64,000 bases of DNA from Patescibacteria group bacterium (GTDB taxonomy: Bacteria > Patescibacteriota > Minisyncoccia > Phycocordibacterales > BOKC01), in the NCBI GenBank assembly GCA_038062955.1, contig JBBTWE010000001.1, positions 253,925-317,924 on the forward strand, in the 5' to 3' direction. The notes under the pieces were generated by a model. That model did no database searches. It had not been told where the DNA came from and saw only the letters and a list, made by a program, of their open reading frames with translations. Made by a program: the position numbers and the translations under genes. Position 1 is the stretch's first letter. Each line of letters starts with the position of its first letter. Below are positions 6,658 to 34,662 of the stretch, piece after piece.

Positions 6658-8193
6658 ATGAGACCTCCCACTCTAAAAACTCTCCTTTCCATAATGTGCG
6701 ATCAAAGTACAGATGCGAAGAAACTCATAGAAAACGCTTGGCAGTTTGGAGAAAAATCTCACAGTGGACAAAAACGACTTTCTGGAGATCCGTATTTCAA
6801 TCATCCATCCCTCGTTGCTCTTTATTTGGCGGAAATTGGCATGGACAGAAATACGATTGCCGCTGGATTGCTTCATGACATTTTGGAAGATACTCCGACA
6901 AGTTCGGCGGTCTTAGAAGAAAAATTTGGAACAGAAATCAAAGTTTTGGTTGAAGGGGTCACAAGGCTTGGAAGCATCAAACACGAAGGCTATGGGTGGG
7001 AAGGTCATACCGAGAGTCTCCGACGATTATTTTGGACAACAGCCCAAGATATTAGAACGATCATAATAAAGCTGGTTGACCGCCTCCATAACATGCAAAC
7101 TTTGGAGTTTCATACCAAAGAGAAGCAACAAGAAAAAGCAAAAGAAACAATGGAATTGTACGCTCCGATTGCTGACAGACTTGGCATCGGTAGGCTCCGC
7201 CAGGACTTGGAAGATTTATCTTTTTCTTTTATTCACCCAGAAAAATATAAAGAAACACAAAAACTTCAGAAGGAAAAACTTTTAATTAATAAAAAAAGGA
7301 TTGATTCTTTACATAAGGCTTTAAAAATAGAGCTCGCGAAGCTCAAAACAGCTTATTTTCAAACAGAAATTCACGAAAAAGGTCTCTATAGACTTTATAA
7401 AAAAATAGAAAGAAAGGGAGGAAATTTGGATCAAATATACGATTACTTTACGTTTTCGGTGGTTGTACCCACCCCGAGCGATTGTTACAAAACTATGGGC
7501 GCGATTCATAGTAAATGGCGACCGTTACCAAACAAGATCAAAGATTTTATTGCTTTCCCCAAACCCAACGGCTACCAAGGAATAGAGACAACAGTTTTTT
7601 CTGATGACGGAGAACTTCTCGAAATCCATATCTTCACAAAAGAGATGTTGCTCCAGGCAAAGTACGGAATAGCTTTTCTTTTATCACCAAAAGAATTTCT
7701 ACCTACTTTAGGCGACGCGGAAAAACAATCATTTTCTTTTAGTAATTTTATTTACTCTTTATTTAAAGTTTTTACTAAAAGAGAAAGTGTAAATTTAATA
7801 AAAGGAAAAATTGATATCCCCGCATGGCTTCAAAAAATGGTAGAAACCCAAAAAAGTATAATAAAGCCAAAAGATTTTATTGATGGTTTAACTCGCGACT
7901 TTCTCAATCATCGAATTTTCGTTTTTACATCACGTGGTGATGTTGTCGATTTGCCTCAAGGATCAAGTGGGGTGGATTTTGCTTACACTATGGGGTCAGA
8001 GGTAGGAAATCACATACGTTCTGTGCGAATAGATCACAAGGAGTGTCCGTTTGCTCAAGAACTTAGAAACGGAGACATTGTCGAAATTGAAACTGACTCT
8101 AAGATTGAGCCTGTAAAAGAGTGGCTTAAATGTGCGAAAACCATTGCCGCCCAGCAATTAATTAATTCGTATTTGCAGAAAAGCAAGAAGTAG
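6658..8193 (+). CDS. rel: RelA/SpoT-homolog (p)ppGpp synthetase/hydrolase, short form
   Basis: HD motif GLLHDILEDT. Synthetase region YRLYKKIERKG..DYFTFSVVV..GYQGIETTV. TGS-like C-terminus RIFVFTSRGDVVDLPQGSS. Confidence 0.85.
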   Translation: MRPPTLKTLLSIMCDQSTDAKKLIENAWQFGEKSHSGQKRLSGDPYFNHPSLVALYLAEIGMDRNTIAAGLLHDILEDTPTSSAVLEEKFGTEIKVLVEGVTRLGSIKHEGYGWEGHTESLRRLFWTTAQDIRTIIIKLVDRLHNMQTLEFHTKEKQQEKAKETMELYAPIADRLGIGRLRQDLEDLSFSFIHPEKYKETQKLQKEKLLINKKRIDSLHKALKIELAKLKTAYFQTEIHEKGLYRLYKKIERKGGNLDQIYDYFTFSVVVPTPSDCYKTMGAIHSKWRPLPNKIKDFIAFPKPNGYQGIETTVFSDDGELLEIHIFTKEMLLQAKYGIAFLLSPKEFLPTLGDAEKQSFSFSNFIYSLFKVFTKRESVNLIKGKIDIPAWLQKMVETQKSIIKPKDFIDGLTRDFLNHRIFVFTSRGDVVDLPQGSSGVDFAYTMGSEVGNHIRSVRIDHKECPFAQELRNGDIVEIETDSKIEPVKEWLKCAKTIAAQQLINSYLQKSKK

Positions 8194-10086: not shown

Positions 10087-10226
10087 ACACTAACTTTAGC
10101 CTATAGACTAAAGTTAGTTGCGAGTAAATTTTAACTTTTACTCTTACGCTGATTTATTATGTTACAAGTATATCAAAACATCCGCTACGCAGAGCGGATG
10201 TTTTTGAATTAGAATTCTAATTATTG

Positions 10227-11996
10227 TTATCGCTGTTCAAATTCTGGAATTGTAACAATTCGAACATGACAAACATCACTATTCACACATCCACTGCCTA
10301 CTGAATCACATATCCTGACATAAGCAGTTCTTGTGCCTAGAGTCGAATAGCTCTCTGGCCGAGATTGTCCATTTCCAAAACTATTTATATTATTATTTTG
10401 ATAAAACCAAGCATATGTGGATGGAAGGCTGACATTAAGATTATTCGACGGAGCCTGCCACGTTACACTTTGACCTATAAGAGCCATATTTGGTGAGACG
10501 GTGCATTCGTTAGGTGATGATGGGTTGTTAATTACGACATTGAAAAAAGCTTCTTTCTCATCTGGTGGGCCTGCGACTACGTTATCAACGGTCACTCTAA
10601 ATGTAATGGAATCAGTGCCAGAACGTACATAGCCAGGAGCAACTGCCACATCCATGGAAATACCAATATCGCAAGAAGCGCCTGGACACACTTCGCCACC
10701 ACCTTGAACATTACTAATCGTTATTCCTGGTATAGATGGAGAAGTTTGAGTAATACTTACGATTCTGACATCTTCAGCTGTGCCACGAGTATGATTAATC
10801 TCAACCACAGAGTTGACTGGCGTACTCCACTGCCCGGTTTGGGGAGGTGTAATTAACACTGACACCGGGTTCATTGCCACTGTGTAATCAAACTGATTTC
10901 CTCCAGTGCCAGATGAATCAACCGAAACAACAAAATCTATATTTTTAGCAGACGGAGAGCGGTTTGGATCAGGATGATTATCAACAGTTACTATAAATCT
11001 AATTAGATTTATAGTTGGGTTATTTGCTCTATAAGAGCCGTCAAATGTCAGATTAACTGAAATAGGAAGCGGCGTACAAGAAGCATTTGGACACACTGTA
11101 CCAATTCCTTGATAGGTAACACTTACGCCAGTTGGCCACTGATAGATTGGATTTGGAACAATATTTAAAATCTTAAGATCTTCAGCTGTACCGCTCGTAT
11201 GAGTAATCACCACAGAAGATGCGGCTGGCATTGTCCCAACCCAACTACTAGACGGAAATGCCAGTGGAACAAGGTTCGGATTGACGCTCGCCGTGTAATC
11301 AAAAATATTCGGTAAATTACATTGATTACCCGAAGCTAAAGTAACACCGTAATTCTGGCCATCACGAAAACTTATCCAACCAACCATATCTCCGCCCCAA
11401 GCCCAACCAGCCAATTCATTATTTGATGGAGCGTATGTAACACCATATTTTCCTGCACCTGTACCCCCACTTAAAGCTATCCAACCATCCCAGCCACCAC
11501 GATAATAAGCCGGTGCAAGCGTTCCAGTACAATCTGAAACAAAAACTGCACAAGCCCTAGCCCAACCAGTTACTTTATTATTAGTTTCGATTTTAGCGTT
11601 GTCCCTTGCAACATATCCACCTCCCGGGAAAGGACCAACTAGTCCTCCAAAACGTACCCAGCCAATGTCTGACGACCATGCGTAGCCGACCAAAGTGCCA
11701 TCATTATTTTTTACTACCCTGTAAGGAGTTCCGCTTGGGGTTGAACCACTAAAACTCAACCATCCCATGCCTTCCAATCTTTCCGAAAGAGGTCTGTCGC
11801 CTCCACCTGTTGTAATATAACCCCACTCCGGATTAGTGTACCCGGACCATGCCCATCCAAGTAAAGGACAAAGATTTGCTTGAGCGTTTGATTTAACAGG
11901 AGAAACAAAGAGAAAGCCTAGAGTTAAAACAATTAAAAAATTCAAAAAAATAAAATATTTTTTATTTGTTTGTATTTTATTTTTTAAATTTTTCAT
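10227..11996 (-). CDS. secreted W/G-rich repeat protein with Ig-like C-terminal domains
   Basis: Signal peptide MKNLKNKIQ..FLFVSPVKSNA. Repeated GWAWSG / GYAWSSDIGW motifs. Two repeated modules VVITHTSGTAEDLKI / VVEINHTRGTAEDVRI. Confidence 0.55.
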   Translation of the reverse strand: MKNLKNKIQTNKKYFIFLNFLIVLTLGFLFVSPVKSNAQANLCPLLGWAWSGYTNPEWGYITTGGGDRPLSERLEGMGWLSFSGSTPSGTPYRVVKNNDGTLVGYAWSSDIGWVRFGGLVGPFPGGGYVARDNAKIETNNKVTGWARACAVFVSDCTGTLAPAYYRGGWDGWIALSGGTGAGKYGVTYAPSNNELAGWAWGGDMVGWISFRDGQNYGVTLASGNQCNLPNIFDYTASVNPNLVPLAFPSSSWVGTMPAASSVVITHTSGTAEDLKILNIVPNPIYQWPTGVSVTYQGIGTVCPNASCTPLPISVNLTFDGSYRANNPTINLIRFIVTVDNHPDPNRSPSAKNIDFVVSVDSSGTGGNQFDYTVAMNPVSVLITPPQTGQWSTPVNSVVEINHTRGTAEDVRIVSITQTSPSIPGITISNVQGGGEVCPGASCDIGISMDVAVAPGYVRSGTDSITFRVTVDNVVAGPPDEKEAFFNVVINNPSSPNECTVSPNMALIGQSVTWQAPSNNLNVSLPSTYAWFYQNNNINSFGNGQSRPESYSTLGTRTAYVRICDSVGSGCVNSDVCHVRIVTIPEFEQR

Positions 11997-12049
11997 TTTA
12001 ATCTTTGAGTGTTGGTTTAGAAAAGAAATAAATTTACCTTTTTAGATTG

Positions 12050-13171
12050 TTATTGTCCCAACCAAACAGCTGTAATTCCTTTTATATATGGTGGAGTGAT
12101 GGAGGTATTATCAGTATTTTCCACAGAAATATTAAATTGATTATGCCAAATACGAATAATCCTAGTGACAGAAAACGGATCAGTCCCATCAGGATTATCC
12201 TTTGTTTCAAAAAGAATATCCTCACTAAATGGATTTCCGAAGTTACCTCCTGCACCTCCGTCCCAAAACATTCTAATTCTGGTTGCCTTAGAACAAGAAT
12301 CGCAAGTATTTCCTGTCGTGCCCCAGACTGTTACCTGCCACAAACCAGGCTGGAGGAAATTAAGTGGATTAGTCTGACCTGTAACAGTAGTAGTAATTCC
12401 TAGAGGAGAACTGAAATTAACAAGTGATTTATGAAAAGTATATGAGGCTTGTTGAGTAGGAGTGTTTACCCACACCGCTTCTCCCTCATAATCGAGCGAG
12501 GATAGATAAGTATCTGGATATGGTTTACCACCCATAATTCTTATCCTACCAAGAGTATAAAGAGAAACTTCTGGTGAATTAATAGTGCCACTACCGATTC
12601 GGACAGTACTACCTGGCCCACGAGGAATATCAATGGTGTATTCGGGATTCAGTGTCCCAATACCAATTCTTGCATCCGGGGAGTCAGCAATAATCGATGT
12701 GCCTAGTCCTACTTCGGAATTCCCTGGTCCTTCTAGGCGAATAGCTGATTGTTGTGGGTTTGCCCTATCTTTAAAGATATGTAGTATGCCTGGGATGCCT
12801 GGGATGGTTGCGGGATTTTTATTTCCGATCAATAAACCTTTATATGGAATAGTTACGGCAAAAGGAGGTATGGTGTTTGGAACCGGAACAAGATCATGCG
12901 TGTCTAGGTGCAGTGGACCATTTTTTATTTGAGGAGAATCACTAACATTCAAAGGTACACCCACGTTTTTTAACAGAGGATTGGGGGGGAGAAAAGATAG
13001 AGGTGGTGGAGTCCAAGGATGTGGTGATGTAAACCATGGGTTAGAAGGTGTCAAAAGCCAAGGATACACATTCCAATGTGTTGCCAATACATCTTGAGTA
13101 GAAACAGCGATCATCAAAGAAAGAATGATGATCTTAGAGACCGAAAGAAAGTTTTGTTTTAAATTTTTCAA
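12050..13171 (-). CDS. secreted paralog 1 of MKNLKQ-family surface proteins (TTG start)
   Basis: Conserved signal peptide. Shares PEYTIDIP, LQPGxW, GTTGNTCDSCS with the next two genes. Confidence 0.6.
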   Translation of the reverse strand: MKNLKQNFLSVSKIIILSLMIAVSTQDVLATHWNVYPWLLTPSNPWFTSPHPWTPPPLSFLPPNPLLKNVGVPLNVSDSPQIKNGPLHLDTHDLVPVPNTIPPFAVTIPYKGLLIGNKNPATIPGIPGILHIFKDRANPQQSAIRLEGPGNSEVGLGTSIIADSPDARIGIGTLNPEYTIDIPRGPGSTVRIGSGTINSPEVSLYTLGRIRIMGGKPYPDTYLSSLDYEGEAVWVNTPTQQASYTFHKSLVNFSSPLGITTTVTGQTNPLNFLQPGLWQVTVWGTTGNTCDSCSKATRIRMFWDGGAGGNFGNPFSEDILFETKDNPDGTDPFSVTRIIRIWHNQFNISVENTDNTSITPPYIKGITAVWLGQ

Positions 13172-13222
13172 TTTTTTGTTTTAAATTTATTCTAAACACT
13201 ATGACTTTCTACAAAAAGTTTT

Positions 13223-14293
13223 TTAACTTCCTATCAAATACCCGCTAATACCATTTATAGTTGGCGCATTGATTCCGCCTCCTCCACCATTATCATTCAC
13301 AGAAAAATTTAAGCCAGGATTGCCAGGCAGTACTCTAACAACCAGAGAAATAGAATATGGAGCAGTGCCGTGTGTAGGGGTTTCTATTCGAAAAGATCTA
13401 CCATCTGGAGTTGGCATCTGATTGTTCGAAACTTCGATAGTTACTGTAGTGTTTGGAGAGTATGCCGCTCCGGTAGTGCCAAAAACCGTAATATACCAAT
13501 AGCCCGGCTCAAGATTGCTGGTTGAATAATTATTATTGTTAACCCCCTGTCCCCAAGATTCATCGATAGTATGAAGCGCAGAAGAAGGAATCATGTTTGG
13601 ATCTGGAATAATGCGTGGACGGCCTGTTGCTGTCCATGATCCTGTTCCGTCGGCATCCACTGATTGTAAATAAGCATCAACTAAAGGTATGGGAAAAGGA
13701 TTACCTGTATCCATAATTTGCAACGTGCCAGAAGTTTGAAGAGAAACTCCAGACGGAACAGTGCCACCGCCAATTCGCATAACAGGGTTCCCTTGCGGAA
13801 TATCGATGGTATATTCCGGATTTAAGGCTGGGTCTGTTCCAATGCCAATCATTGTCCATTGAGTTGGAGTGACCAATGCTGGACCTGCCCCTTCCACACG
13901 AATAGCAGGTCGTTGTAAATTTGCCGGATCTTTATAAATATGGAATTGAGGACGAGATGAGGTTGAAATGGTTTCAGGATCTCTATTCCCGAGCAATACG
14001 CCTCCATTATTAACACCCATCGCATTCCCATGAATAATACTGAAACCAAAAGATGATGAAACATACGGAAATTCAGTTCTGACATTGTTTGCATTTATAA
14101 GTAGTGGCCCATCTTTTATTTGCGGCGTACTTCCTGTATTTAAAGGCAATGCTATGTTCCCGCCCGGAAAAGCAACTGTTACAGGTGCCGAAGAAGTCGG
14201 CTGTGCCAAAGTATGCGCAGTAACAAAACTAATCACTAAAAAAAGAATGATTATTTTTGCAATCGACAGAATTTTTTGCTTTAAATTTTTCAA
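13223..14293 (-). CDS. secreted paralog 2 of MKNLKQ-family (TTG start)
   Basis: Signal peptide ends ..AHTLA-QP. LPLNTGSTPQIKDGPLLINANNV and NPEYTIDIPQG are shared with the other paralogs. Confidence 0.6.
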   Translation of the reverse strand: MKNLKQKILSIAKIIILFLVISFVTAHTLAQPTSSAPVTVAFPGGNIALPLNTGSTPQIKDGPLLINANNVRTEFPYVSSSFGFSIIHGNAMGVNNGGVLLGNRDPETISTSSRPQFHIYKDPANLQRPAIRVEGAGPALVTPTQWTMIGIGTDPALNPEYTIDIPQGNPVMRIGGGTVPSGVSLQTSGTLQIMDTGNPFPIPLVDAYLQSVDADGTGSWTATGRPRIIPDPNMIPSSALHTIDESWGQGVNNNNYSTSNLEPGYWYITVFGTTGAAYSPNTTVTIEVSNNQMPTPDGRSFRIETPTHGTAPYSISLVVRVLPGNPGLNFSVNDNGGGGGINAPTINGISGYLIGS

Positions 14294-14307
14294 TTTTTTG
14301 TCTTAAA

Positions 14308-15447
14308 TTAATATTGCGTCCAATATGCGCTAACTCCGTTTATAAGTGGTTCTGCCGTGCCAGAAATGTTATCCGTAACACTGACTGTTATTTTGCCGTA
14401 GTTTAAGTTGGTATTTTGGGGAACATAAACAATCCTAGTAATAGAAAACTCCGCATTTCCATCTGGATGATCTCTTATGAAAAAAGGGGTATCGACAGTT
14501 CCAAGTGAACCATTCGCGCCAAGTCTCATTGAAACAGTAACTGTGTAAGAGCAAGTATCACAGGCATTTCCAATAGTACCAAAAGCCGTCACGTGCCAAA
14601 AACCCGGTTGTAGAAAGTTAAGTGGATCGGGCGAAATAGACGCGGTGGAAGCGACTCCACTTTCCGAGAATGCTTCAGGCCAACTAACATACTGAAGCAA
14701 GGAAGGGTTGTGGTTATATAAAGATCGCCTTGCATGATACGGAACCTTCCAAAGTGTTTCTCCGGTCCCATTCAAAGTGGCCAGATAAGCGCCAGGGAAT
14801 GGACCGGCAAAATCAGTGGATGGACCATTGCCGTCATATTGATTGCCACTATCGAGAGATGGACCACCTCCCATTATTTTTACTCGACCGTTAACTTGAA
14901 GAGAGACTTCATCGTCCTGTAGACTACCATTTGGCTCATCACCACCAAGCCGAACGATCGGGATACTGATGTTGTTAGGAGTTATATTTCCCCAAGGTAT
15001 ATCAACAGTGTAATTCGGATTTAATGTTCCAATACCTATTTTTGCATCTGCAGAGTCGGTAACAAGTGCCGGACCAGACCCCTCAATACGAATAAATATC
15101 CGTCGGTAGGTATTGTGAAAAATATGCAACAATCCTTGTGGGGCAGTAACGGTATCAATCTGTGCCAAAACAGTGCTAATCAACATGCCCCAATAAGGAA
15201 TGGTTAAGCCGAAATATTGGGCAACATTGTTTGCGTTTATAAGTAGTGCCCCATCTTTTAATTGAGGAGAAGAACCGGTATTTAACGGCAGATCTATTCT
15301 TTCTACGGCTACAAATGGATCTTCTGGAGGAGGAGTTGATGTAGGTGGAACCCACTGCGCAGAAGTTTGCCCAGCAAAAATGCTAATCATAAGGGAAAGA
15401 ACGATGATTTTTGTGACCGACAGAATTTTTTGTTTTAAATTTTTCAA
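14308..15447 (-). CDS. secreted paralog 3 of MKNLKQ-family (TTG start)
   Basis: LPLNTGSSPQLKDGALLINANNV, NPNYTVDIP, LQPGFWHVTAFGTIGNACDTCS. Confidence 0.6.
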   Translation of the reverse strand: MKNLKQKILSVTKIIVLSLMISIFAGQTSAQWVPPTSTPPPEDPFVAVERIDLPLNTGSSPQLKDGALLINANNVAQYFGLTIPYWGMLISTVLAQIDTVTAPQGLLHIFHNTYRRIFIRIEGSGPALVTDSADAKIGIGTLNPNYTVDIPWGNITPNNISIPIVRLGGDEPNGSLQDDEVSLQVNGRVKIMGGGPSLDSGNQYDGNGPSTDFAGPFPGAYLATLNGTGETLWKVPYHARRSLYNHNPSLLQYVSWPEAFSESGVASTASISPDPLNFLQPGFWHVTAFGTIGNACDTCSYTVTVSMRLGANGSLGTVDTPFFIRDHPDGNAEFSITRIVYVPQNTNLNYGKITVSVTDNISGTAEPLINGVSAYWTQY

Positions 15448-15518
15448 TTTTTTGTTTTAAATCCACGAATGAGAAGATGTTTTCTGAAAATCTCTATTCA
15501 GCAGGTTCATCTTCTATT

Positions 15519-15758
15519 TTATATAGCAGAATCGAAAAAAGCTTGTTTTTCTTCATCGGTCATACCAACGGCATTTTTTTGAAGTTCTTGATTAAGAAAA
15601 TTTTCTCTTTCAGTTTCAGTCAAACCTTGCGAAGCATTCTTGCTAAAGAAAAAAGAAATTAGAAAAGCCACTACAACAATCAAAATAATCACTCCCACAA
15701 TACGAAAAAAATGTTTGGAGATTGAGAAATTGTGATTTTGAATATTTTCTGGAGGCAT
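15519..15758 (-). CDS. small single-TM membrane protein at the head of the paralog array
   Basis: 79-aa ORF with one hydrophobic helix IVGVIILIVVVAFLISFFF. Confidence 0.35.
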   Translation of the reverse strand: MPPENIQNHNFSISKHFFRIVGVIILIVVVAFLISFFFSKNASQGLTETERENFLNQELQKNAVGMTDEEKQAFFDSAI

Positions 15759-15968
15759 TGAATATTAATTTAGATTCCCCATTTAAGAATATTATACTAC
15801 AAGCGGTCATGTTTATAAAGATAATGTGGATAACTCCAACACCTTTCAAGGTATTGCAACCAATTTTCAAAATAACTGATTTTGTGATAAATTTATTCTG
15901 GCTAGCGAGCGGAATTTATAGAACCAAATTATCAACAATTATTTTTAGCTTAATTTTTTTTCTTTAAT

Positions 15969-16667
15969 ATGGAAAATAATAAAACAAGCGGTGGTGGTTT
16001 TAAAGTCATTAGTTTAATCGTGGTTTTGGTAGCCGTTATTTTAATCATTGTATTTTTAATGCCACAAACAAAGAATGTGGTGGCGGAAGTAAATGGAGCG
16101 CAAATCACACAGAGTGATTTAGATAAAAAGGTAGTAAAGACAAAAGATTTTCTAAAGGGAAATGGGAACACCGACGTGCTTACAGCCCAACAAGAAATAG
16201 ACCTCAAAAAGAATGTTTTGGAAGGTATGATAACTGAAAAACTGGTAGCGGATTATGCGACAGAAAATAATATTGCGGTTACAAATGCAGAATTAGAAGT
16301 AGAGTTTGCAAAAGTGGTTACTTCAGCTGGTGGTGAGGCGGGTTTGGAAACTCAACTCAAGAACTTTAATATAACCAAAGCCCAACTTAACGAAGATATC
16401 CGTTCCGCTTTGATTTTTAACAAGTCCGTAGAAAAATACGTTGGAGCAGAAAAATTACTAGTAACTGAAGCAGAAGCATTGGACACTTACAACACTTTAG
16501 TTAAAGAGGCAAAGGCGGAAGTCCCTCCCTCAACAGAAGCAATCCCTTCGTTTGAAGATGCAAAAGTCTTACTTATGGAACAATTAAGAGGACAGAAGAT
16601 CAACGTCGAGTCACAAAGTTTTGTTGAATTTCTTCGAGGGAAAGCTACGATAAAAAACCTTTTGTAA
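15969..16667 (+). CDS. SurA/PpiD N-terminal chaperone-domain protein, membrane anchored
   Basis: N-terminal TM followed by VAEVNGAQITQSDLDKKV, which is typical of SurA_N/PpiD-like domains. Confidence 0.5.
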   Translation: MENNKTSGGGFKVISLIVVLVAVILIIVFLMPQTKNVVAEVNGAQITQSDLDKKVVKTKDFLKGNGNTDVLTAQQEIDLKKNVLEGMITEKLVADYATENNIAVTNAELEVEFAKVVTSAGGEAGLETQLKNFNITKAQLNEDIRSALIFNKSVEKYVGAEKLLVTEAEALDTYNTLVKEAKAEVPPSTEAIPSFEDAKVLLMEQLRGQKINVESQSFVEFLRGKATIKNLL

Positions 16668-16733: not shown

Positions 16734-17024
16734 TTAGTATTCTTTTCGGAAACTAGAACTTCCTCCACGTGGTCGTTCTTCTTTTGCGCGAGCTTCGTCA
16801 ACGGTGATTTTTCTTCCTTCCATTTCTTTGCCGTTAAACATTTGAATCGCTGTCTTAGCTTCTTCATCGGATGCCATTTCAACGAAACCAAACCCTTTTG
16901 AACGACCTGACATTTTGTCAGAAATGATTGTTGCGGAAGCAACTTTTCCAGCTTTTGAAAAAAAAGCGGATAAATCGTTTTCAGTGGTGCTGTATGGCAG
17001 ACCACCTACATATAACTTTTTCAT
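16734..17024 (-). CDS. RRM-type RNA-binding protein
   Basis: RNP-2 motif LYVGGL and RNP-1 motif KGFGFVEM, plus an RGG-like tail. Start set at MKKLYVGG. Confidence 0.8.
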   Translation of the reverse strand: MKKLYVGGLPYSTTENDLSAFFSKAGKVASATIISDKMSGRSKGFGFVEMASDEEAKTAIQMFNGKEMEGRKITVDEARAKEERPRGGSSSFRKEY

Positions 17025-17147
17025 TATTATAGAGAACTTTGTTTGTCTTATAAATGAGGTCAGAAACCCCAAGTAAGTCGATCGAACCTTTAACGCTTAC
17101 TTGCTTAAAAAATTACACAAAAACCCTCAAAAAGTCAAACCATGAAT

Positions 17148-17471
17148 TTATCTCACAACACTTCCAGGTAATATTTCTTCGGAAGGATGAAGCAGGACAA
17201 CTTTGCTGTCCGAACTTGTTGCAAGAATCATTCCCTGACTTTCTAATCCCATAATCATGCGTGGTTCTAAATTAGTCAAAACGGGTACTTGCTTGCCAAC
17301 TAAAATTTGTGGATCATCAAATGACTCGCCAATTCCAGAGAGAATTTGCCTAGTTTCGTTTCCAAAATCAACTATAAGTTTGAGTAACTTAGTGCTTTTC
17401 TCAACTTTCTCTGCAGAAATAATCTTACCGATTTTAATTTCTAATTTTTTAAAATCTTCGATAGAAATCAT
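17148..17471 (-). CDS. tRNA-binding domain protein (CsaA/EMAP-like)
   Basis: MISIEDFKKLEIKIGKII..KLLKL.VDFG is the OB-fold tRNA-binding signature. Start set at MISIED so the gene does not overlap typA. Confidence 0.65.
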   Translation of the reverse strand: MISIEDFKKLEIKIGKIISAEKVEKSTKLLKLIVDFGNETRQILSGIGESFDDPQILVGKQVPVLTNLEPRMIMGLESQGMILATSSDSKVVLLHPSEEILPGSVVR

Positions 17472-17481
17472 ATGATTAGAT

Positions 17482-19278
17482 TTACTCTTTTCTTCTTGCT
17501 CTTGATCGGTCAGTATCACTTAAATACTGCTTTCTTAGTCTCACACTCTTGGGAGTTACTTCCAAATATTCATCGTCTGCCATTATTTCAAGTCCTCGCT
17601 CAAGCGTAATTGGCACCGGAGGGGCGAGCATAATATTTTCATCAGACCCACTTGCGCGCATGTTGGTGAGTTGCTTTCCTTTAGTGGGATTCACAGTCAT
17701 CTCTTCACCTTTTGAAGTATTACCAATAACCATTCCTTCGTAAACTTCTTCAGTTGGTCCGATATATAAAGTGCCTCGATTTTGAAGATTGTCCAAAGAG
17801 AATCCAAGAGCTTTGCCGGTCGCTTGTGAAATCATTGAGCCAACACTTCTCTTTTTAATCTCTCCAAAATATGGACGAAAACCAAGCACTCGGCTTGCCA
17901 TAATTCCCTCTCCTTTTGTATCGACTATAAACTGCCCACGGAAACCCAAAATGCCTCTAGTTGGACCTTCAAAGGTGAGTCTTACGCGTGATCCGTCCGG
18001 CTTCATATTTGTCATCATTACCCCTCTCTTTGATAGATTTTCGATAATACCTCCCTGCATTGATTCTGGAACTTCGATAGTCACCTCCTCAAACGGTTCA
18101 CTTTTCACACCATCAATATCTTTGATAATAACTTGTGGTTGAGATACCTGCATTTCATAACCTTCTCGGCGCATGTTTTCAAGCAAAATAGCGATGTGCA
18201 TTTCTCCACGGCCGTACACTCTCATATCGTCACCTGAAAAGTCCACCCGTAACCCGACGTTGATTTCAAGTTCTTTTTCGAGCCTTTCTCTTATCTGCCT
18301 GCTAGTAACGAATTTTCCTTCTTTGCCGGCAAAAGGCGAATTATTAACCAAAAAATTAAGAGCGATGGTTGGTTCATCAACCTTTATCACTGGAAGAATT
18401 TCTGTATCTTGCGAATCGGTTATGGTATCGCCAATATAAATCTCTGGTAGACCAGCGAGCATAGCAATATCCCCTGCTTCAGCTTCCGCAACTTCTTTTC
18501 TGGAAGTTCCTTCAAAAGTAAAAATCTTGGTTATTTTTTCTTCTTTTATTTCACCCCCAAGTTTCTTTACAAAAACTTTAGATCCGACTTTTACAGTTCC
18601 TTCGTAAATACGACAAATCGCGAGTCTCCCCAAGAAATTATCGTATCCCAGATTAAAAGGCTGGGCTTTAAGCGGCGCGGTTTTTGATGCATTAGCTGGT
18701 GCGACTTTTTCAAGGATGGTATCCAAAAGTGGCGACATATCTTTCTTTTCGTCCGAAAGTTTCTTCATAGTAACCCCTTGTTTTCCAATCGCATATACGG
18801 TTACAAAATCTAATTGTTCTTCATTTGCTCCAAGTTCAAAAAAGAGTTCCAAAACTTCATTGTGAGCTCTTTCTGGGTCAGCGGCCGGTTTATCTATTTT
18901 ATTTAAAACGACTATTGGTTTGTGTCCGATTTCAAGTGATTTTTTCAAAACGAATCTAGTTTGTGGCATCGGCCCTTCTTGAGCGTCAACAACAAGAACA
19001 ACTGAATCAATTGATTTTAAAACTCGTTCAACTTCGGATCCGAAATCAGCATGTCCCGGAGTGTCAACGATATTTATTTTAGTGCCTTTGTAGATTATCG
19101 AAGCATTTTTGGCATAAATAGTAATACCACGCTCTCTTTCAAGAGAATTTGAATCCATACTGCCTCCTTCCGGCGACATACCGGTTTGCTTCATGATGGC
19201 ATCAGTGATGGTGGTTTTGCCGTGATCTACGTGGGCTATGATTGCTATATTTCTAATTTCCATAGTGTCAACTTTCAT
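17482..19278 (-). CDS. typA: translational GTPase TypA/BipA
   Basis: [22 protein letters not shown] and NKIDK, at EF-G-like length. An alternative start MEIRN lies 15 bp downstream. Confidence 0.9.
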
Positions 19279-24243: not shown

Positions 24244-24633
24244 TTAACTTTGGAATTCAACTTCAAAAGGGTACATTCCCATACCACAGCTCCCTTGGAG
24301 AGTCGCTAACTGCGGAGTTCCAATATCGATATCTGTCGAACCACTTTGAGGAAGTATTTTACTAATGTTCATACTTGGAATACGCACCGAAGATGAACAA
24401 TCGAAAGTTCCGTTTGTGTCAAAACGAATAATTGTTGGGATGCCAGCCTTTGCAATACTCTTCCTTGGTTGATATCCGCCCTTAGCTTTTATTTCAATGA
24501 TTTGCTTGCCATCCACAATGGAAACATTATTTCCATTCGGAATTTCCCCCGAACTATTTCCATTTTTTGAGAGCGCAAAAGCGCCCCCAATGAGAGCGAC
24601 CGCAACTAAAATTGATATAAGGGTAAATTTCAT
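24244..24633 (-). CDS. small exported protein in the copper operon
   Basis: Start MKFTLISILVAVALIG comes from the leader element. Signal peptide present. Confidence 0.5.
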   Translation of the reverse strand: MKFTLISILVAVALIGGAFALSKNGNSSGEIPNGNNVSIVDGKQIIEIKAKGGYQPRKSIAKAGIPTIIRFDTNGTFDCSSSVRIPSMNISKILPQSGSTDIDIGTPQLATLQGSCGMGMYPFEVEFQS

Positions 24634-24789
24634 CCCGTAGTGAAATTTCAGGTCGTCCCGTAGTAGAAGCGAAGCTTTCACTACGGGACTATCCTGATAT
24701 TTTTTTGAGTATTCTTAATAAGTAAACTTAATTCTTTTATGTGTTCCGTAGTAAGTATTTACAACCTGAAATTCTACTACGGGATTCAT
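24631..24789 (-). promoter_or_regulatory. leader element family A, copy 1 (uORF plus four CCCGTAGT/ACTACGGG segments; supplies the gene's ATG)
   Basis: Aligns with 30463-30621 and 34393-34550. uORF MNPVVEFQVVNTYYGTHKRIKFTY. Hairpin GTCCCGTAGT-loop-ACTACGGGAC. Confidence 0.7.
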
Positions 24790-30048: not shown

Positions 30049-30465
30049 CTATTCAACGATAAGTTTTCCTACCATCCCCTTAGCTCTATGAGATCCAACT
30101 GAACAATAATATTCAAAAGTTCCTATCTTATCTGCGACAAATTCGATTGTGTCATCTGCGCCTCCTTTGGTAATAATTTTTGTTGCGGCGTTAAATTCAT
30201 CAATTTTAAAATCGTGCGGCATAACATCAGGATTTTTAAGAGTTATTTTTACGGTATCTCCAACATTAACCTTAATTTCGGCGGGCAAGAATTTGAAATC
30301 TGTTCCTACAACTGTGAATTCTCTTATCGTAGACGTTGGCTCTGCAATAATTTTAGTGACATCTTCTTCTGTTGTTACAGGAACAGTGTTGGTATCTTTA
30401 GTTAGAAACCACATCCCGCCCAAAACAATAATTAAGAGAGCAATAATACCTATTAATTTATTCAT
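30049..30465 (-). CDS. type-1 copper cupredoxin (plastocyanin/amicyanin-like), membrane anchored
   Basis: Ligand pattern MPHDF ... YYCSVGSHRAKGM, i.e. His, Cys, His, Met. Confidence 0.75.
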   Translation of the reverse strand: MNKLIGIIALLIIVLGGMWFLTKDTNTVPVTTEEDVTKIIAEPTSTIREFTVVGTDFKFLPAEIKVNVGDTVKITLKNPDVMPHDFKIDEFNAATKIITKGGADDTIEFVADKIGTFEYYCSVGSHRAKGMVGKLIVE

Positions 30466-30621
30466 CCCGTTAGTGAAATTTCAGGTCATCCCGTAGTGAC
30501 AGCTTCGCTTCTACTACAGGACTATCTAGAAAATTCTATTTATTTTTTAATATATTCTATTGGTTAATAATATTCCCATGAGTCAAACAATTGCAACCTG
30601 AAATTCTACTACGGGATTCAT
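30463..30621 (-). promoter_or_regulatory. leader element family A, copy 2
   Basis: uORF MNPVVEFQVAIV. The hairpin loop is inverted relative to copies 1 and 3. The ATG of the cupredoxin gene lies inside the 3' module. Confidence 0.7.
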
Positions 30622-30632
30622 ATTTTTTTATA

Positions 30633-30830
30633 TTATATATTAATAACACTCGTATAAGTATTTAGAAACGATGGTATTGCAAAAACAAGTCCGATTAGCG
30701 GTAAGACAATGGCGAGAACCGTGATCCAAGTTGCAATCAAAAAATACTTTCTCATTTTCTCTACCGATGCATAAATTGCATTGAGTTTGGCATCTTGTTC
30801 CTCAAGTTTTGTCTTAATCTCATTTTCCAT
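30633..30830 (-). CDS. small membrane protein
   Basis: 65 aa with one TM helix. Confidence 0.3.
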   Translation of the reverse strand: MENEIKTKLEEQDAKLNAIYASVEKMRKYFLIATWITVLAIVLPLIGLVFAIPSFLNTYTSVINI

Positions 30831-33501: not shown

Positions 33502-34395
33502 CTATTTGGAATAATATTTGAGAAGAGCATCTATACCCTTCTGATTCTTGTCCCATTCAACCTCATTGTGTGTTGAGAGAAGAACGCTGATTGCTGGAAC
33601 ATTTATTTTAGCGAGCCAATTTACCATGTCTCCTGTTATTTCGTAGAAATCAAAATCATCTGAAGCTGGGTATCCGGAAGCATCAGCGTAAGTTTTTGTT
33701 AGAGTGCTTGTTTCAGGCAAAATACCTTTGTGACAATTTGATGCGAACACACCTCCTGCGGCACTATACCAAACAACAACTGCATCTGGTTTTTTTGTCT
33801 CCACATAATTTTTTATTGCTTGGCTTTCTGGTTCAGAAAATACTGCATCTCCACCGCTTACATCTTTACTTTGCCACTTGCCTGTAGCTTGCCAATCACA
33901 ATCAAAATTTCTGTTTAAATCAACAGTGTTTCCATTGAAACGGCCGGCAACTTGTGTTGTTTGTGATGCTCTAATATCAGCTTTTGTAAAACGTCCTGTG
34001 GTTGTAGCAACCTTGCTTAGACCATCTGGATTTAACACTGGGATAACTGTTACTTTTACGTTTGTTGGGATGACATTAGTAGTGCCTTCTTCCAATAAAT
34101 AATCCATGAGTCGGTAAGCGACCAAAGTTGTATTCCAAGAATACCCTCCGTGGATACCTCCAACAAATAGAAGCTCTGTGTCCCCTTCACCGAAGTGATA
34201 GGCAACGATTTCACGTCCTTCGACTGAAGTTCCGATAACAGTTTTGGTTTTATCAACTGGCACCTGCACGATTGGTTCAGTAACCACTGGAACTGGTTCG
34301 ACAGGAGCTGGCACTGCTTTTTCTTTGTTTTTAATAAAATAGAAACCAAGACCGATGAGAATGATGATTACAATTATTAGTATAAATTTTTTCAT
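33502..34395 (-). CDS. M14 zinc carboxypeptidase family protein, exported (paralog)
   Basis: GGIHGGYSW, NPDGL, DLNRNFDCDW. Start codon lies inside leader copy 3. Confidence 0.75.
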   Translation of the reverse strand: MKKFILIIVIIILIGLGFYFIKNKEKAVPAPVEPVPVVTEPIVQVPVDKTKTVIGTSVEGREIVAYHFGEGDTELLFVGGIHGGYSWNTTLVAYRLMDYLLEEGTTNVIPTNVKVTVIPVLNPDGLSKVATTTGRFTKADIRASQTTQVAGRFNGNTVDLNRNFDCDWQATGKWQSKDVSGGDAVFSEPESQAIKNYVETKKPDAVVVWYSAAGGVFASNCHKGILPETSTLTKTYADASGYPASDDFDFYEITGDMVNWLAKINVPAISVLLSTHNEVEWDKNQKGIDALLKYYSK

Positions 34396-34550
34396 CCCGA
34401 TAGTGAAATTTCAGGTCGTCCTGTAGTAGAAGCGAAGCTTTCACTACGGGACTATCCTCGAAATTCAGTTTATTTTTAATAAGATAGGTTATCCAATTAT
34501 ATTCCCGCGCATCAAGTATTTGCAACCTGAAATTCTACTACGGGATTCAT
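34393..34550 (-). promoter_or_regulatory. leader element family A, copy 3
   Basis: uORF MNPVVEFQVANT. Same hairpin and terminal modules as copies 1 and 2. Confidence 0.7.
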
Positions 34551-34662
34551 AATGTTTTAGAATAATTTAATAAAAACGACAAAAACGTTTGTTTAAACAT
34601 CTCATATCATTCTAAGTCTTTTGATATATCAAAGCAACTCACCATTAACGAAACAAGCGGTT

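Follow-up and report, generated by a model that had tools for sequence, protein, structure and literature searches.

A conserved gene array for tail-fibre-like proteins with a predicted TNF-like head in a groundwater Patescibacteria genome

Positions 10,227 to 15,758 of the 64,000-nt stretch analyzed here (the window; contig JBBTWE010000001.1, positions 253,925 to 317,924) contain a gene for a small membrane protein, followed on the minus strand by four genes for secreted proteins, here called g1 to g4, and raise the question of what kind of surface protein is encoded there. The stretch is part of a contig of ~700 kb in a Patescibacteria metagenome-assembled genome from groundwater of the Hainich well H43. 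The first-pass annotation, made from the sequence alone, described four secreted paralogs with an identical signal peptide, TTG starts and a duplicated A-rich string, and proposed a diversifying surface or adhesin family. With a probability of about 60%, the locus is instead a stable operon of five genes, which encode three tail-fibre-like paralogs with TNF-like heads (g1 to g3), a small membrane protein and a protein with GWAWS repeats and immunoglobulin (Ig)-like repeats (g4), and the repeat at the start codons is a lineage-specific by-product and not a novel start signal.

Homology and architecture of the array

The four minus-strand open reading frames (ORFs) and the 79-aa ORF with a single transmembrane (TM) helix were confirmed from the ORF table and the sequence (Table 1). 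The gene order is TM, g1, g2, g3, g4, and g2 starts 14 nt past the g1 stop codon. However, only g1, g2 and g3 are paralogs. Their pairwise identities are 41, 41 and 36%, the conserved blocks quoted in the first-pass annotation are present in their alignment, and the family hidden Markov model (HMM) matches these three proteins alone within the window. The supposed fourth paralog g4 shares just MKNLK(N)K with them and belongs to another family. The signal peptides of g1 to g3 are similar rather than identical, with 58-65% amino acid identity over 31 residues; g3 begins with MKNLKQN and has an extra W/P-rich insert (HWNVYPWLLTPSNPWFTSPHPW) behind its leader.

Table 1. Positions of the genes and sequence elements of the array in the window.
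Feature	Position	Strand	Remarks
79-aa membrane protein gene	15519..15758	minus	first in the proposed operon; from ORF table
g1, fibre-like paralog 1	14308..15447	minus	379 aa, TTG start
g1 head (~residues 260-379)	14311-14670	minus	separate module of the last ~120 residues
g2, fibre-like paralog 2	13223..14293	minus	356 aa, TTG start; orthologues L008 gB, L006 gA
g3, fibre-like paralog 3	12050..13171	minus	373 aa, TTG start; orthologue L006 gB = P0005
g4	10227..11996	minus	589 aa, ATG start; not a paralog of g1-g3
Promoter-like site TTTATA-17-TATAAT with adjoining block GAGTTATCCACATTAT	15791..15833 (hexamers 15819-15791)	minus	sequence match 10/12
Terminator-like hairpin ACATCCGCT-ctgcgt-AGCGGATGT, then TTTTG	10171..10205	minus	downstream of g4
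Leader repeat at g1, two copies of TTTAAAACAAAAAATT, 22 nt apart	15424..15461	minus	around/overlapping TTG 15445-15447
Leader repeat at g2, TTTAAGACAAAAAATT + TTTAAAGCAAAAAATT	14270..14307	minus	upstream copy abuts g1 stop codon
Leader repeat at g3, TTTAAAACAAAAAATT + TTTAAAACAAAACTTT	13148..13185	minus	

For g1 to g3 no Pfam match at E ≤ 1 was obtained apart from noise. A word-indexed search found six close relatives, and an exhaustive HMM search returned 547 cluster representatives at E < 1e-3, which define the uncurated superfamily referred to in the following. Just ~9 of them are full-length relatives; the remaining matches share the N-terminal module or the stalk motifs with g1 to g3. The alignment of the family with 16 superfamily members in hhalign has a probability of 99.7% (E 2.8e-27, 187 columns), begins at residue 4 and spans the leader, the N-terminal module, the GIGT motif and the motif V.G.v.I.GG.P..G..L.s.d..G...W, i.e., the N-terminal two-thirds. 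The superfamily HMM matches g1 to g3 at 5e-27 to 6e-17. A profile scan of genome contigs for the narrow g1-g3 family found nothing.

The leader and the N-terminal module are kept in 101 of 134 inspected superfamily matches, with the N-terminal consensus mKk..l...KiiiLALiL.vG..Yv.A.WTaPt.tPP.gNvdAPLNVGst.QiK.GgL. The superfamily pattern of the module, which g1 to g3 share, is A↓xW..P..PP..N..P(L/I)N.G...Q.K.G.L (the arrow marks the cleavage site). Leader and module can be summarized as MK..KQ..L..KIIILxL...A↓xW..P..PP....PLN.G..Q.K.G.L, and this arrangement is kept across hundreds of Patescibacteria protein clusters. Since the leader is conserved over the whole superfamily, its near-identity in g1 to g3 does not indicate a recent duplication. 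As read from the sequence, all three leaders have Sec-type features of signal peptidase I substrates, namely a basic n-region, a hydrophobic core of ~13 residues and small residues at -3/-1. The signal peptide of g1 is MKNLKQKILSVTK / IIVLSLMISIFAG / QTSA↓QW, where the leader comprises residues 1-31 and cleavage is predicted after TSA; the predicted sites of g2 and g3 are TLA↓Q and VLA↓T. The mature proteins are predicted to begin with QWVPPTSTPPPEDPFVAVER (g1), QPTSSAPVTVAFPGGNIALPLNTGSTPQIK (g2) and THWNVYPW... (g3), and the three proteins are probably exported by the Sec pathway and cleaved after the A-x-A site.

Behind this module, the g1-g3 family carries the superfamily-aligned stalk motifs GIGT..P...L/I.V/D and V.G.v.I.GG.P..G..L.s.d..G...W, and the stalk of g1 to g3 contains the tail-fibre-type motif IGIGT.NP.Y..D. 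Giant proteins contain 9-15 repeated stretches that match positions 125-210 of the family profile. The superfamily members P0136, P0141 and P0150 carry a C-terminal Peptidase_S74 domain (PF13884) directly after the stalk motifs, and several members ending in this domain match PHROG tail-fibre families. Peptidase_S74 is the intramolecular chaperone of tail fibres. In g1 to g3 this domain was not found by the Pfam search. The operon is not located in a phage or prophage structural module, as its neighbours are housekeeping genes, its synteny extends over three lineages and there are zero PHROG matches. The surface or adhesin-like build that had been suggested for these proteins is supported, as they are predicted to be secreted and are homologous to a tail-fibre-like superfamily.

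The last 120 residues of g1 to g3 form a head with the signature L.PG.W.VT..G..G ... HPDGTAPFS ... I.G(V/I)(S/T)AY. In an AlphaFold2 model of g1 residues 181-379, which was built from a 22-sequence alignment, the predicted local distance difference test (pLDDT) values over the head are 84-93. Foldseek searches of the Protein Data Bank (PDB) with the head returned PRD1 P5, the N-terminal lectin domain of BC2L-C, TL1A, FasL, TNF, RANKL, 4-1BBL and a chain of the cyanophage A4 portal-tail complex, and among viral models, tail fibres and collagen/C1q-like proteins came up. With E values of 1e-3 to 1e-2 and target-normalised TM-scores of 0.4-0.5 these matches are modest, yet they agree in theme, namely trimeric TNF-like jelly rolls at fibre tips. 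The head is predicted to be a TNF/C1q-like jelly roll of ~120 residues, which agrees with the tail-fibre or lectin fold guessed in the first-pass annotation. It has no C1q or TNF Pfam match, and its alignment gave no significant PDB sequence match (best E 0.13). One head loop of g1 and g3 (~14550-14570 and ~12290-12310) as well as of their orthologues (P0003 and P0005) has a conserved C-x-x-C pair (GN.CD.CS), which is absent from g2; in g1 and g3 this pair could form a disulphide or bind a metal.

The same head also terminates P0146 (791 aa, after a collagen-like Gly-X-Y run), the GIGT-repeat protein P0167 and, in a database of 5.8 billion sequences, 217-aa proteins without signal peptide (E down to 2e-9). 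One of these, P0279 (218 aa, with the HPDGTAPF head; L017 9001-9657), is encoded directly after an SU10-type adaptor gene on a podophage-like contig, which also has an SU10-type portal gene nearby. Judged from these sequences, the head module is common to the cellular fibres and a podophage-like tail, and this suggests that receptor-binding parts have been exchanged between these bacteria and phages. A scan of viral contigs for the head motif found nothing.

A single promoter-like site precedes the five genes, and a single terminator-like hairpin follows them. The site TTTATA-17-TATAAT upstream of the 79-aa gene is the best promoter-like match of the region, and the hairpin downstream of g4 is the sole good terminator-like hairpin on the minus strand in the region examined. 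The block GAGTTATCCACATTAT.TTTATAA...GTAGTATAAT is conserved in the window and in two other lineages with syntenic loci (L001 and L011), the -10 hexamer is also kept in all three, and the flanking intergenic DNA is not conserved. This combination of a single site, a single hairpin and a promoter block kept in three lineages speaks for transcription as one operon, which is part of the reading favoured here. Immediately upstream of the -35 hexamer, at 15825-15833 (minus) and inside the block 15791-15840, lies the sole perfect TTATCCACA 9-mer of the window, which is the DnaA-box consensus. Three lineages with just 35-50% identity between their proteins have kept the 24 nt that surround it, and this conservation hints at a candidate operator.

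Start codons and leader repeats

The TTG starts of g1, g2 and g3 were confirmed, as an in-frame TAA four codons upstream of each rules out a missed upstream ATG and orthologues starting with ATG begin at the equivalent residue. These ATG-start relatives (L011 g1-g3, L001 g1 and L010) do not have the repeat. For g1, the 379-aa TTG form is also called by NCBI. By contrast, g1 and g2 were cut short by two gene callers, which chose internal starts and thereby lost the signal peptide, and it is chiefly for annotation that the TTG start and the duplicated leader matter.

The duplicated A-rich string at all three starts was confirmed: ATTTAAAACAAAAAATTGAAAAATTTAAAACAAAA is exact in g1 and g3 and has two substitutions in g2. 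For the 16-mer TTTAAAACAAAAAATT, both copies are exact in g1, in g3 the coding copy deviates at two positions and the upstream one at none, and each copy of g2 has one mismatch. With up to two mismatches allowed, it occurs seven times in 64 kb, six of them at the starts of g1 to g3, against an expectation of 1.15; none of 100 shuffles reached seven. For each of the three genes, the upstream/downstream repeat with a period of 22 beats 300 of 300 composition-preserving shuffles of the upstream region. The repeat is significant in g1 to g3 of the window and in L008 gA only, where the period is 23.

The comparison with relatives points to a history in which the TTG start and the repeat are a lineage-specific scar of a small duplication and not a new mechanism, and this history belongs to the reading given about 60% above. 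Read in the +1 frame, the upstream copies begin with GTG-GAT-TTA (g1), ATT-AAT-TTA (g2) and ATA-AAT-TTA (g3), which resembles the ATG-AAT-TTA of L011 g1, and a single step separates each of their first codons from ATG. An older start may have been put out of frame when 22 nt of the 5′ end were duplicated in tandem; GTG, ATT and ATA would be its relics, and TTG would then have become the working start. Local gene conversion could have kept the arrangement alike in the three genes, perhaps together with selection that favours an open, A-rich start region, in a genome where Shine-Dalgarno (SD) sites are little used. In the region -24..+27 the identity is 80-85% among the window paralogs vs. 70-77% between orthologues, and in the mature region this is reversed, with 50-57% among paralogs vs. 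63-70% between orthologues. Such a pattern weakly points to concerted evolution of the 5′ ends of g1 to g3, and the idea of a gene-conversion scar receives some support.

The earlier proposal of an SD-independent enhancer is not special to g1 to g3, since an SD-like core (GGAG/GAGG/AGGA at -20..-4) is found in just 7 of the 41 ATG genes of the window, vs. 10% background. The organism seems to rely on SD-independent initiation; position -1 is T in 59% of the window genes. Nevertheless, the duplicated string might be a functional translation-initiation element, i.e., a standby or enhancer site that offsets a weak TTG without an SD site and is itself selected. There is an appreciable chance of this, although it stays well below even. 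TAAAA(A)C with an A-run lies just upstream in 7/7 family genes with TTG or GTG starts and is absent from five ATG-start genes, the motif is conserved between g1 of the window and L008 gA where DNA further upstream is unalignable, and the start regions are unstructured and A-rich, with 11-15 A in the 20 nt upstream vs. a mean of 8.2 (sd 2.0) for other genes. However, little of the motif is left in the g2 orthologues L008 gB and L006 gA, which start with GTG. Moreover, if a single duplication gave rise to both the non-ATG starts and the motif, the two would be expected to go together just as well. Far less credible, and hardly worth a chance, is a translated upstream ORF or a recoding signal, in which the +1-frame GTG, ATT or ATA would serve as start and ribosomes would reach the main frame by a frameshift or by hopping between the identical strings. 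The +1-frame copies do read (GTG/ATT/ATA)-(D/N)-L-(K/R)-Q-K-I, which mirrors MKNLKQKI, and the period of 22 nt equals 21+1. But each of the three genes would use a different start codon, two of which are very poor initiators, the +1 ORFs are of unequal length (27, 27 and 18 codons), no stimulatory RNA structure was found, the period is different in L008 gA, and ordinary initiation at TTG is enough to account for the conserved N-terminus of the proteins. From the reading frames, this alternative was rejected as unsupported. An RNA structure or riboswitch at the starts was likewise ruled out, as the z-scores at g1 to g3 are -0.6 to +0.8 and Rfam gave two tRNAs only in the window.

Conservation and proposed function

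Two independent Hainich H43 assemblies carry the array with 100% identity over 6 kb, and two further independent assemblies differ from it by 1 and 3 bases. In two diverged lineages with syntenic loci (L001-L005 and L011/L012), the order BipA, tRNA-binding protein, RRM protein, SurA_N protein (on the opposite strand), small TM protein, three paralogs and g4-like gene recurs. The number of paralogs is three in all three complete syntenic loci (window, L001 and L011), and orthologues of the 79-aa protein, which has a short N-terminus, a single TM helix and an acidic C-terminal tail, are found at the same position in L001 and L011 with 52-56% identity. Four agreeing independent assemblies and two syntenic lineages rule out a tandem-duplication assembly artefact. 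In one low-coverage Hainich assembly (L016), a nonsense variant was observed at position 14571 of the window (g1 codon 293, GGA to TGA), which splits g1 into ORFs of 273 aa and 73 aa and is either a population nonsense allele or a sequencing error. An alternative genetic code, which this variant brings to mind, was ruled out, as 9 of 54 ORFs terminate with TGA and translation table 11 leaves the long ORFs unbroken.

The partner g4 comprises a signal peptide, an N-terminal domain with GWAWS..IGWI.F repeats, two ~135-aa Ig-like repeats and a C-terminal domain. It has 120 homologues, some with PKD or Ig Pfam domains, and represents a widespread Patescibacteria family different from that of g1 to g3. 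In three unrelated loci (L019, L020 and L022) the order g4-like gene, ~100-aa single-TM protein, fibre gene and pilB was found; g4 of the window matches their g4-like proteins at E 1e-15 to 1e-19, and its orthologues in L011 and L001 match them at down to E 1e-32. The match between the 79-aa protein and the ~100-aa TM proteins of other loci is weak (E 9e-5) and partly driven by the TM helix; other TM proteins score similarly. A scan of GTDB species genomes yielded 36 fibre loci, nearly all labelled Patescibacteria. Sixteen of the GTDB loci extend for 1.8 kb or more to either side, and in 12 of these 16 a g4-like gene is the direct neighbour or at most 2.5 kb away; pilB lies within 8 kb of the fibre gene in 9 of 34 GTDB loci, and at least two tandem fibre ORFs are present in 9 of 34. 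Superfamily fibre genes are located directly upstream of pilB in L019, L020, L022, L024-L027 and L048. This shows that g4 is a conserved partner of the fibre genes across Patescibacteria and not a paralog; in the favoured reading, the small membrane protein is such a partner as well. Two of the module loci come from records with other labels, L027 from a Nanoarchaeia archaeon and L036 from Alphaproteobacteria (964-kb contig), and probably represent Patescibacteria sequences that were mis-binned or mislabelled. In literature searches, neither the g1-g3 family nor the module turned up, and the module of fibre, g4-like and small TM genes, which is widespread in Patescibacteria, is apparently undescribed so far.

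Given this build of leader with N-terminal module, beta-rich stalk and C-terminal head, g1 to g3 would form trimers, by analogy with every characterised protein of such build; the collagen-like run in P0146 and the S74 domain on related stalks lend indirect support. The cell envelope would retain the conserved N-terminal end, while the head would point away from the cell and bind a ligand, which is likely to be a surface glycan or protein of a partner cell. As the module is next to pilB in many lineages, the fibres probably work with or beside a pilus-based attachment apparatus.

A rapidly diversifying adhesin family, in which g1 to g3 would change by a diversity-generating retroelement (DGR), by phase variation of the 22-nt repeat or by frequent recombination among the paralogs, is very improbable. 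It is suggested by the divergent stretches between the conserved blocks, by the short direct repeat at the start, which could in principle slip, and by the nonsense change in g1 of one assembly. Against it, the four assemblies, which come from different samples, are unchanged in the variable segments and in repeat number, with two copies at all three genes, and the A-runs of 6 are short for slippage. No template-repeat partner for any variable segment was found within 64 kb, no reverse transcriptase is among the annotated neighbours within 6 kb, which are housekeeping genes, and the variable domain is not a C-type lectin, so that both DGR and phase variation are unsupported. Furthermore, g1, g2 and g3 pair one-to-one, according to position, with orthologues of the L008/L006 lineage (100% bootstrap), and the g1 head is 76% identical to that of its orthologue. 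A different alternative accepts this stability and takes g1 to g3 as the three chains of one obligate heterotrimeric fibre, co-translated for equal amounts. Complement C1q, whose A, B and C chains are encoded by three tandem genes, would be the model. Exactly three copies in each complete syntenic locus, similar gene lengths, tight spacing, one promoter, and conserved blocks alternating with paralog-specific segments agree with such a fibre, and the TNF/C1q-like fold class includes heterotrimers. It is nevertheless unlikely, as 25 of 34 superfamily loci have a single fibre gene and homotrimers are the default for this architecture; moreover, the three L011 paralogs cluster together with 100% bootstrap, which fits independent duplication or gene conversion better than ancient specialised chains. 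Somewhat more doubtful still is the far-reaching idea that such a heterotrimer forms, together with the GWAWS-repeat protein and the small membrane protein, an undescribed host-recognition organelle that is derived from tail fibres and coupled to type IV pili.

Several points weigh against the stable operon of surface fibres with a by-product repeat. No anchoring motif was found in g1 to g3, and these proteins have no match in PHROG, NCBIfam or PDB sequences. The full-length AlphaFold2 model is poor (pLDDT 42), so that only the C-terminal half was used and the stalk architecture comes from sequence motifs alone. The 64-kb window holds no pilB, and the link to pili is thus not a physical one here. 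Regarding the repeat, the leader identities among paralogs and between orthologues are only ~4 nt in 51 apart, the history of duplication is a reconstruction from five to ten short A-rich sequences, and L001 g3′ retains the upstream TTAAAACAAAAAC while its own coding copy has diverged. The latter favours a function over a neutral scar and leaves room for a role as an A-rich initiation region.

Type IV pili are almost the only known means by which the ultra-small Patescibacteria recognise and hold their partner cells. The locus points to a phylum-wide module that is covered by no curated family and consists of a secreted tail-fibre-like protein with exchangeable C-terminal heads, a GWAWS-repeat partner and a small membrane protein. 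The heads are TNF-like here, and a S74 chaperone domain or other C-terminal regions are found elsewhere. If the proteins are surface fibres, they are concrete candidates for determinants of host specificity.

The annotated genes within 6 kb of the operon are housekeeping genes and comprise BipA, a tRNA-binding protein, an RRM protein, a SurA_N protein and NDH-2. The gene of the SurA_N-domain protein (15969-16667, plus strand) is transcribed divergently from the operon and adjoins those of the RRM RNA-binding protein (16734-17072, minus) and the tRNA-binding-domain protein (17148-17519, minus). These three neighbours are kept in all three syntenic lineages, and a chaperone or regulatory link between them and the fibre operon is possible.

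Elsewhere in the window, a conserved leader element of ~60-120 nt was observed at 24620-24720, 30430-30635 and 34360-34564 (minus), upstream of the genes 24244-24681, 30049-30465 and 33502-34395. It contains a 16-17-bp hairpin (GATAGTCCCGTAGTGAAAGCTTCGCTTCTACTACGGGAC), after which come GACCTGAAATTTCACTA.CGGG and then ATG. Rfam gave no match for it, neither for 30380-30700 below the gathering threshold nor for the whole window at the gathering threshold, and the three copies give no covariation. Finally, a 48-nt intergenic family of GATTYANGATT-type words, e.g., GATTCAAGATTTACGATTTAGGATTTAAGATTT, was found at positions 8179, 52186, 54471, 55927 and 57555.

Comparison with known systems

Within the same phylum, the type IV pilus loci of the cultivated Saccharibacteria strain TM7x encode the non-canonical minor pilins PilX1, with a beta-jelly-roll C-terminal domain, and PilX2, with a beta-propeller, and PilX2 is needed for normal binding of TM7x to its host (PMC12206443). 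Like g1 to g3, these Patescibacteria proteins have an N-terminal hydrophobic helix that is not PilD-type and a large C-terminal beta domain, and they are encoded in pilus loci (PMC12206443). In contrast, g1 to g3 have an A-x-A motif typical of signal peptidase I and lie in a window without pilB; the likeness is one of domain build.

With the phage tail fibres and tailspikes that carry S74, such as the K1F endosialidase and the T5 L-shaped fibre, g1 to g3 share the stalk motifs xVGIGT..P...L.V.G and I.GG.P..G.vLtsd..G.a.W. However, they have a jelly-roll head instead of S74, a Sec-type leader and a location in a cellular operon among housekeeping genes.

The signal peptides YSIRK-G/S and KxYKxGKxW are conserved in a family-specific manner in Gram-positive surface proteins. 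The leader described here is likewise conserved over a whole superfamily, as MK..KQ..L...KIIILAL..VG..Y..A↓xW, but its motif differs from these types, and a special sorting route is not evidenced here.

The overall plan, with attachment through the N-terminal part, a thin stalk behind it and a TNF/C1q-like jelly-roll knob at the C-terminal end, corresponds to that of PRD1 P5-type fibres, and PRD1 P5 (1yq5) is the best PDB structural match; 9k09_A is also among the matches. A similar plan is known from Bacillus BclA, which has a collagen-like stalk and a C1q-like head. No sequence similarity to either could be detected, the structural matches score only modestly, and here the fibre would belong to a cell and not to a virion or spore. 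The N-terminal domain of BC2L-C from Burkholderia cenocepacia, which ranks 2-3 among the PDB matches with a target-normalised TM-score of 0.47-0.51, has just 14-17% sequence identity and a different domain context. It is a trimeric TNF-like fucose-binding lectin, which is secreted and binds carbohydrate at the trimer interfaces, and this likeness makes a glycan-binding role plausible for the head of g1 to g3 as well.

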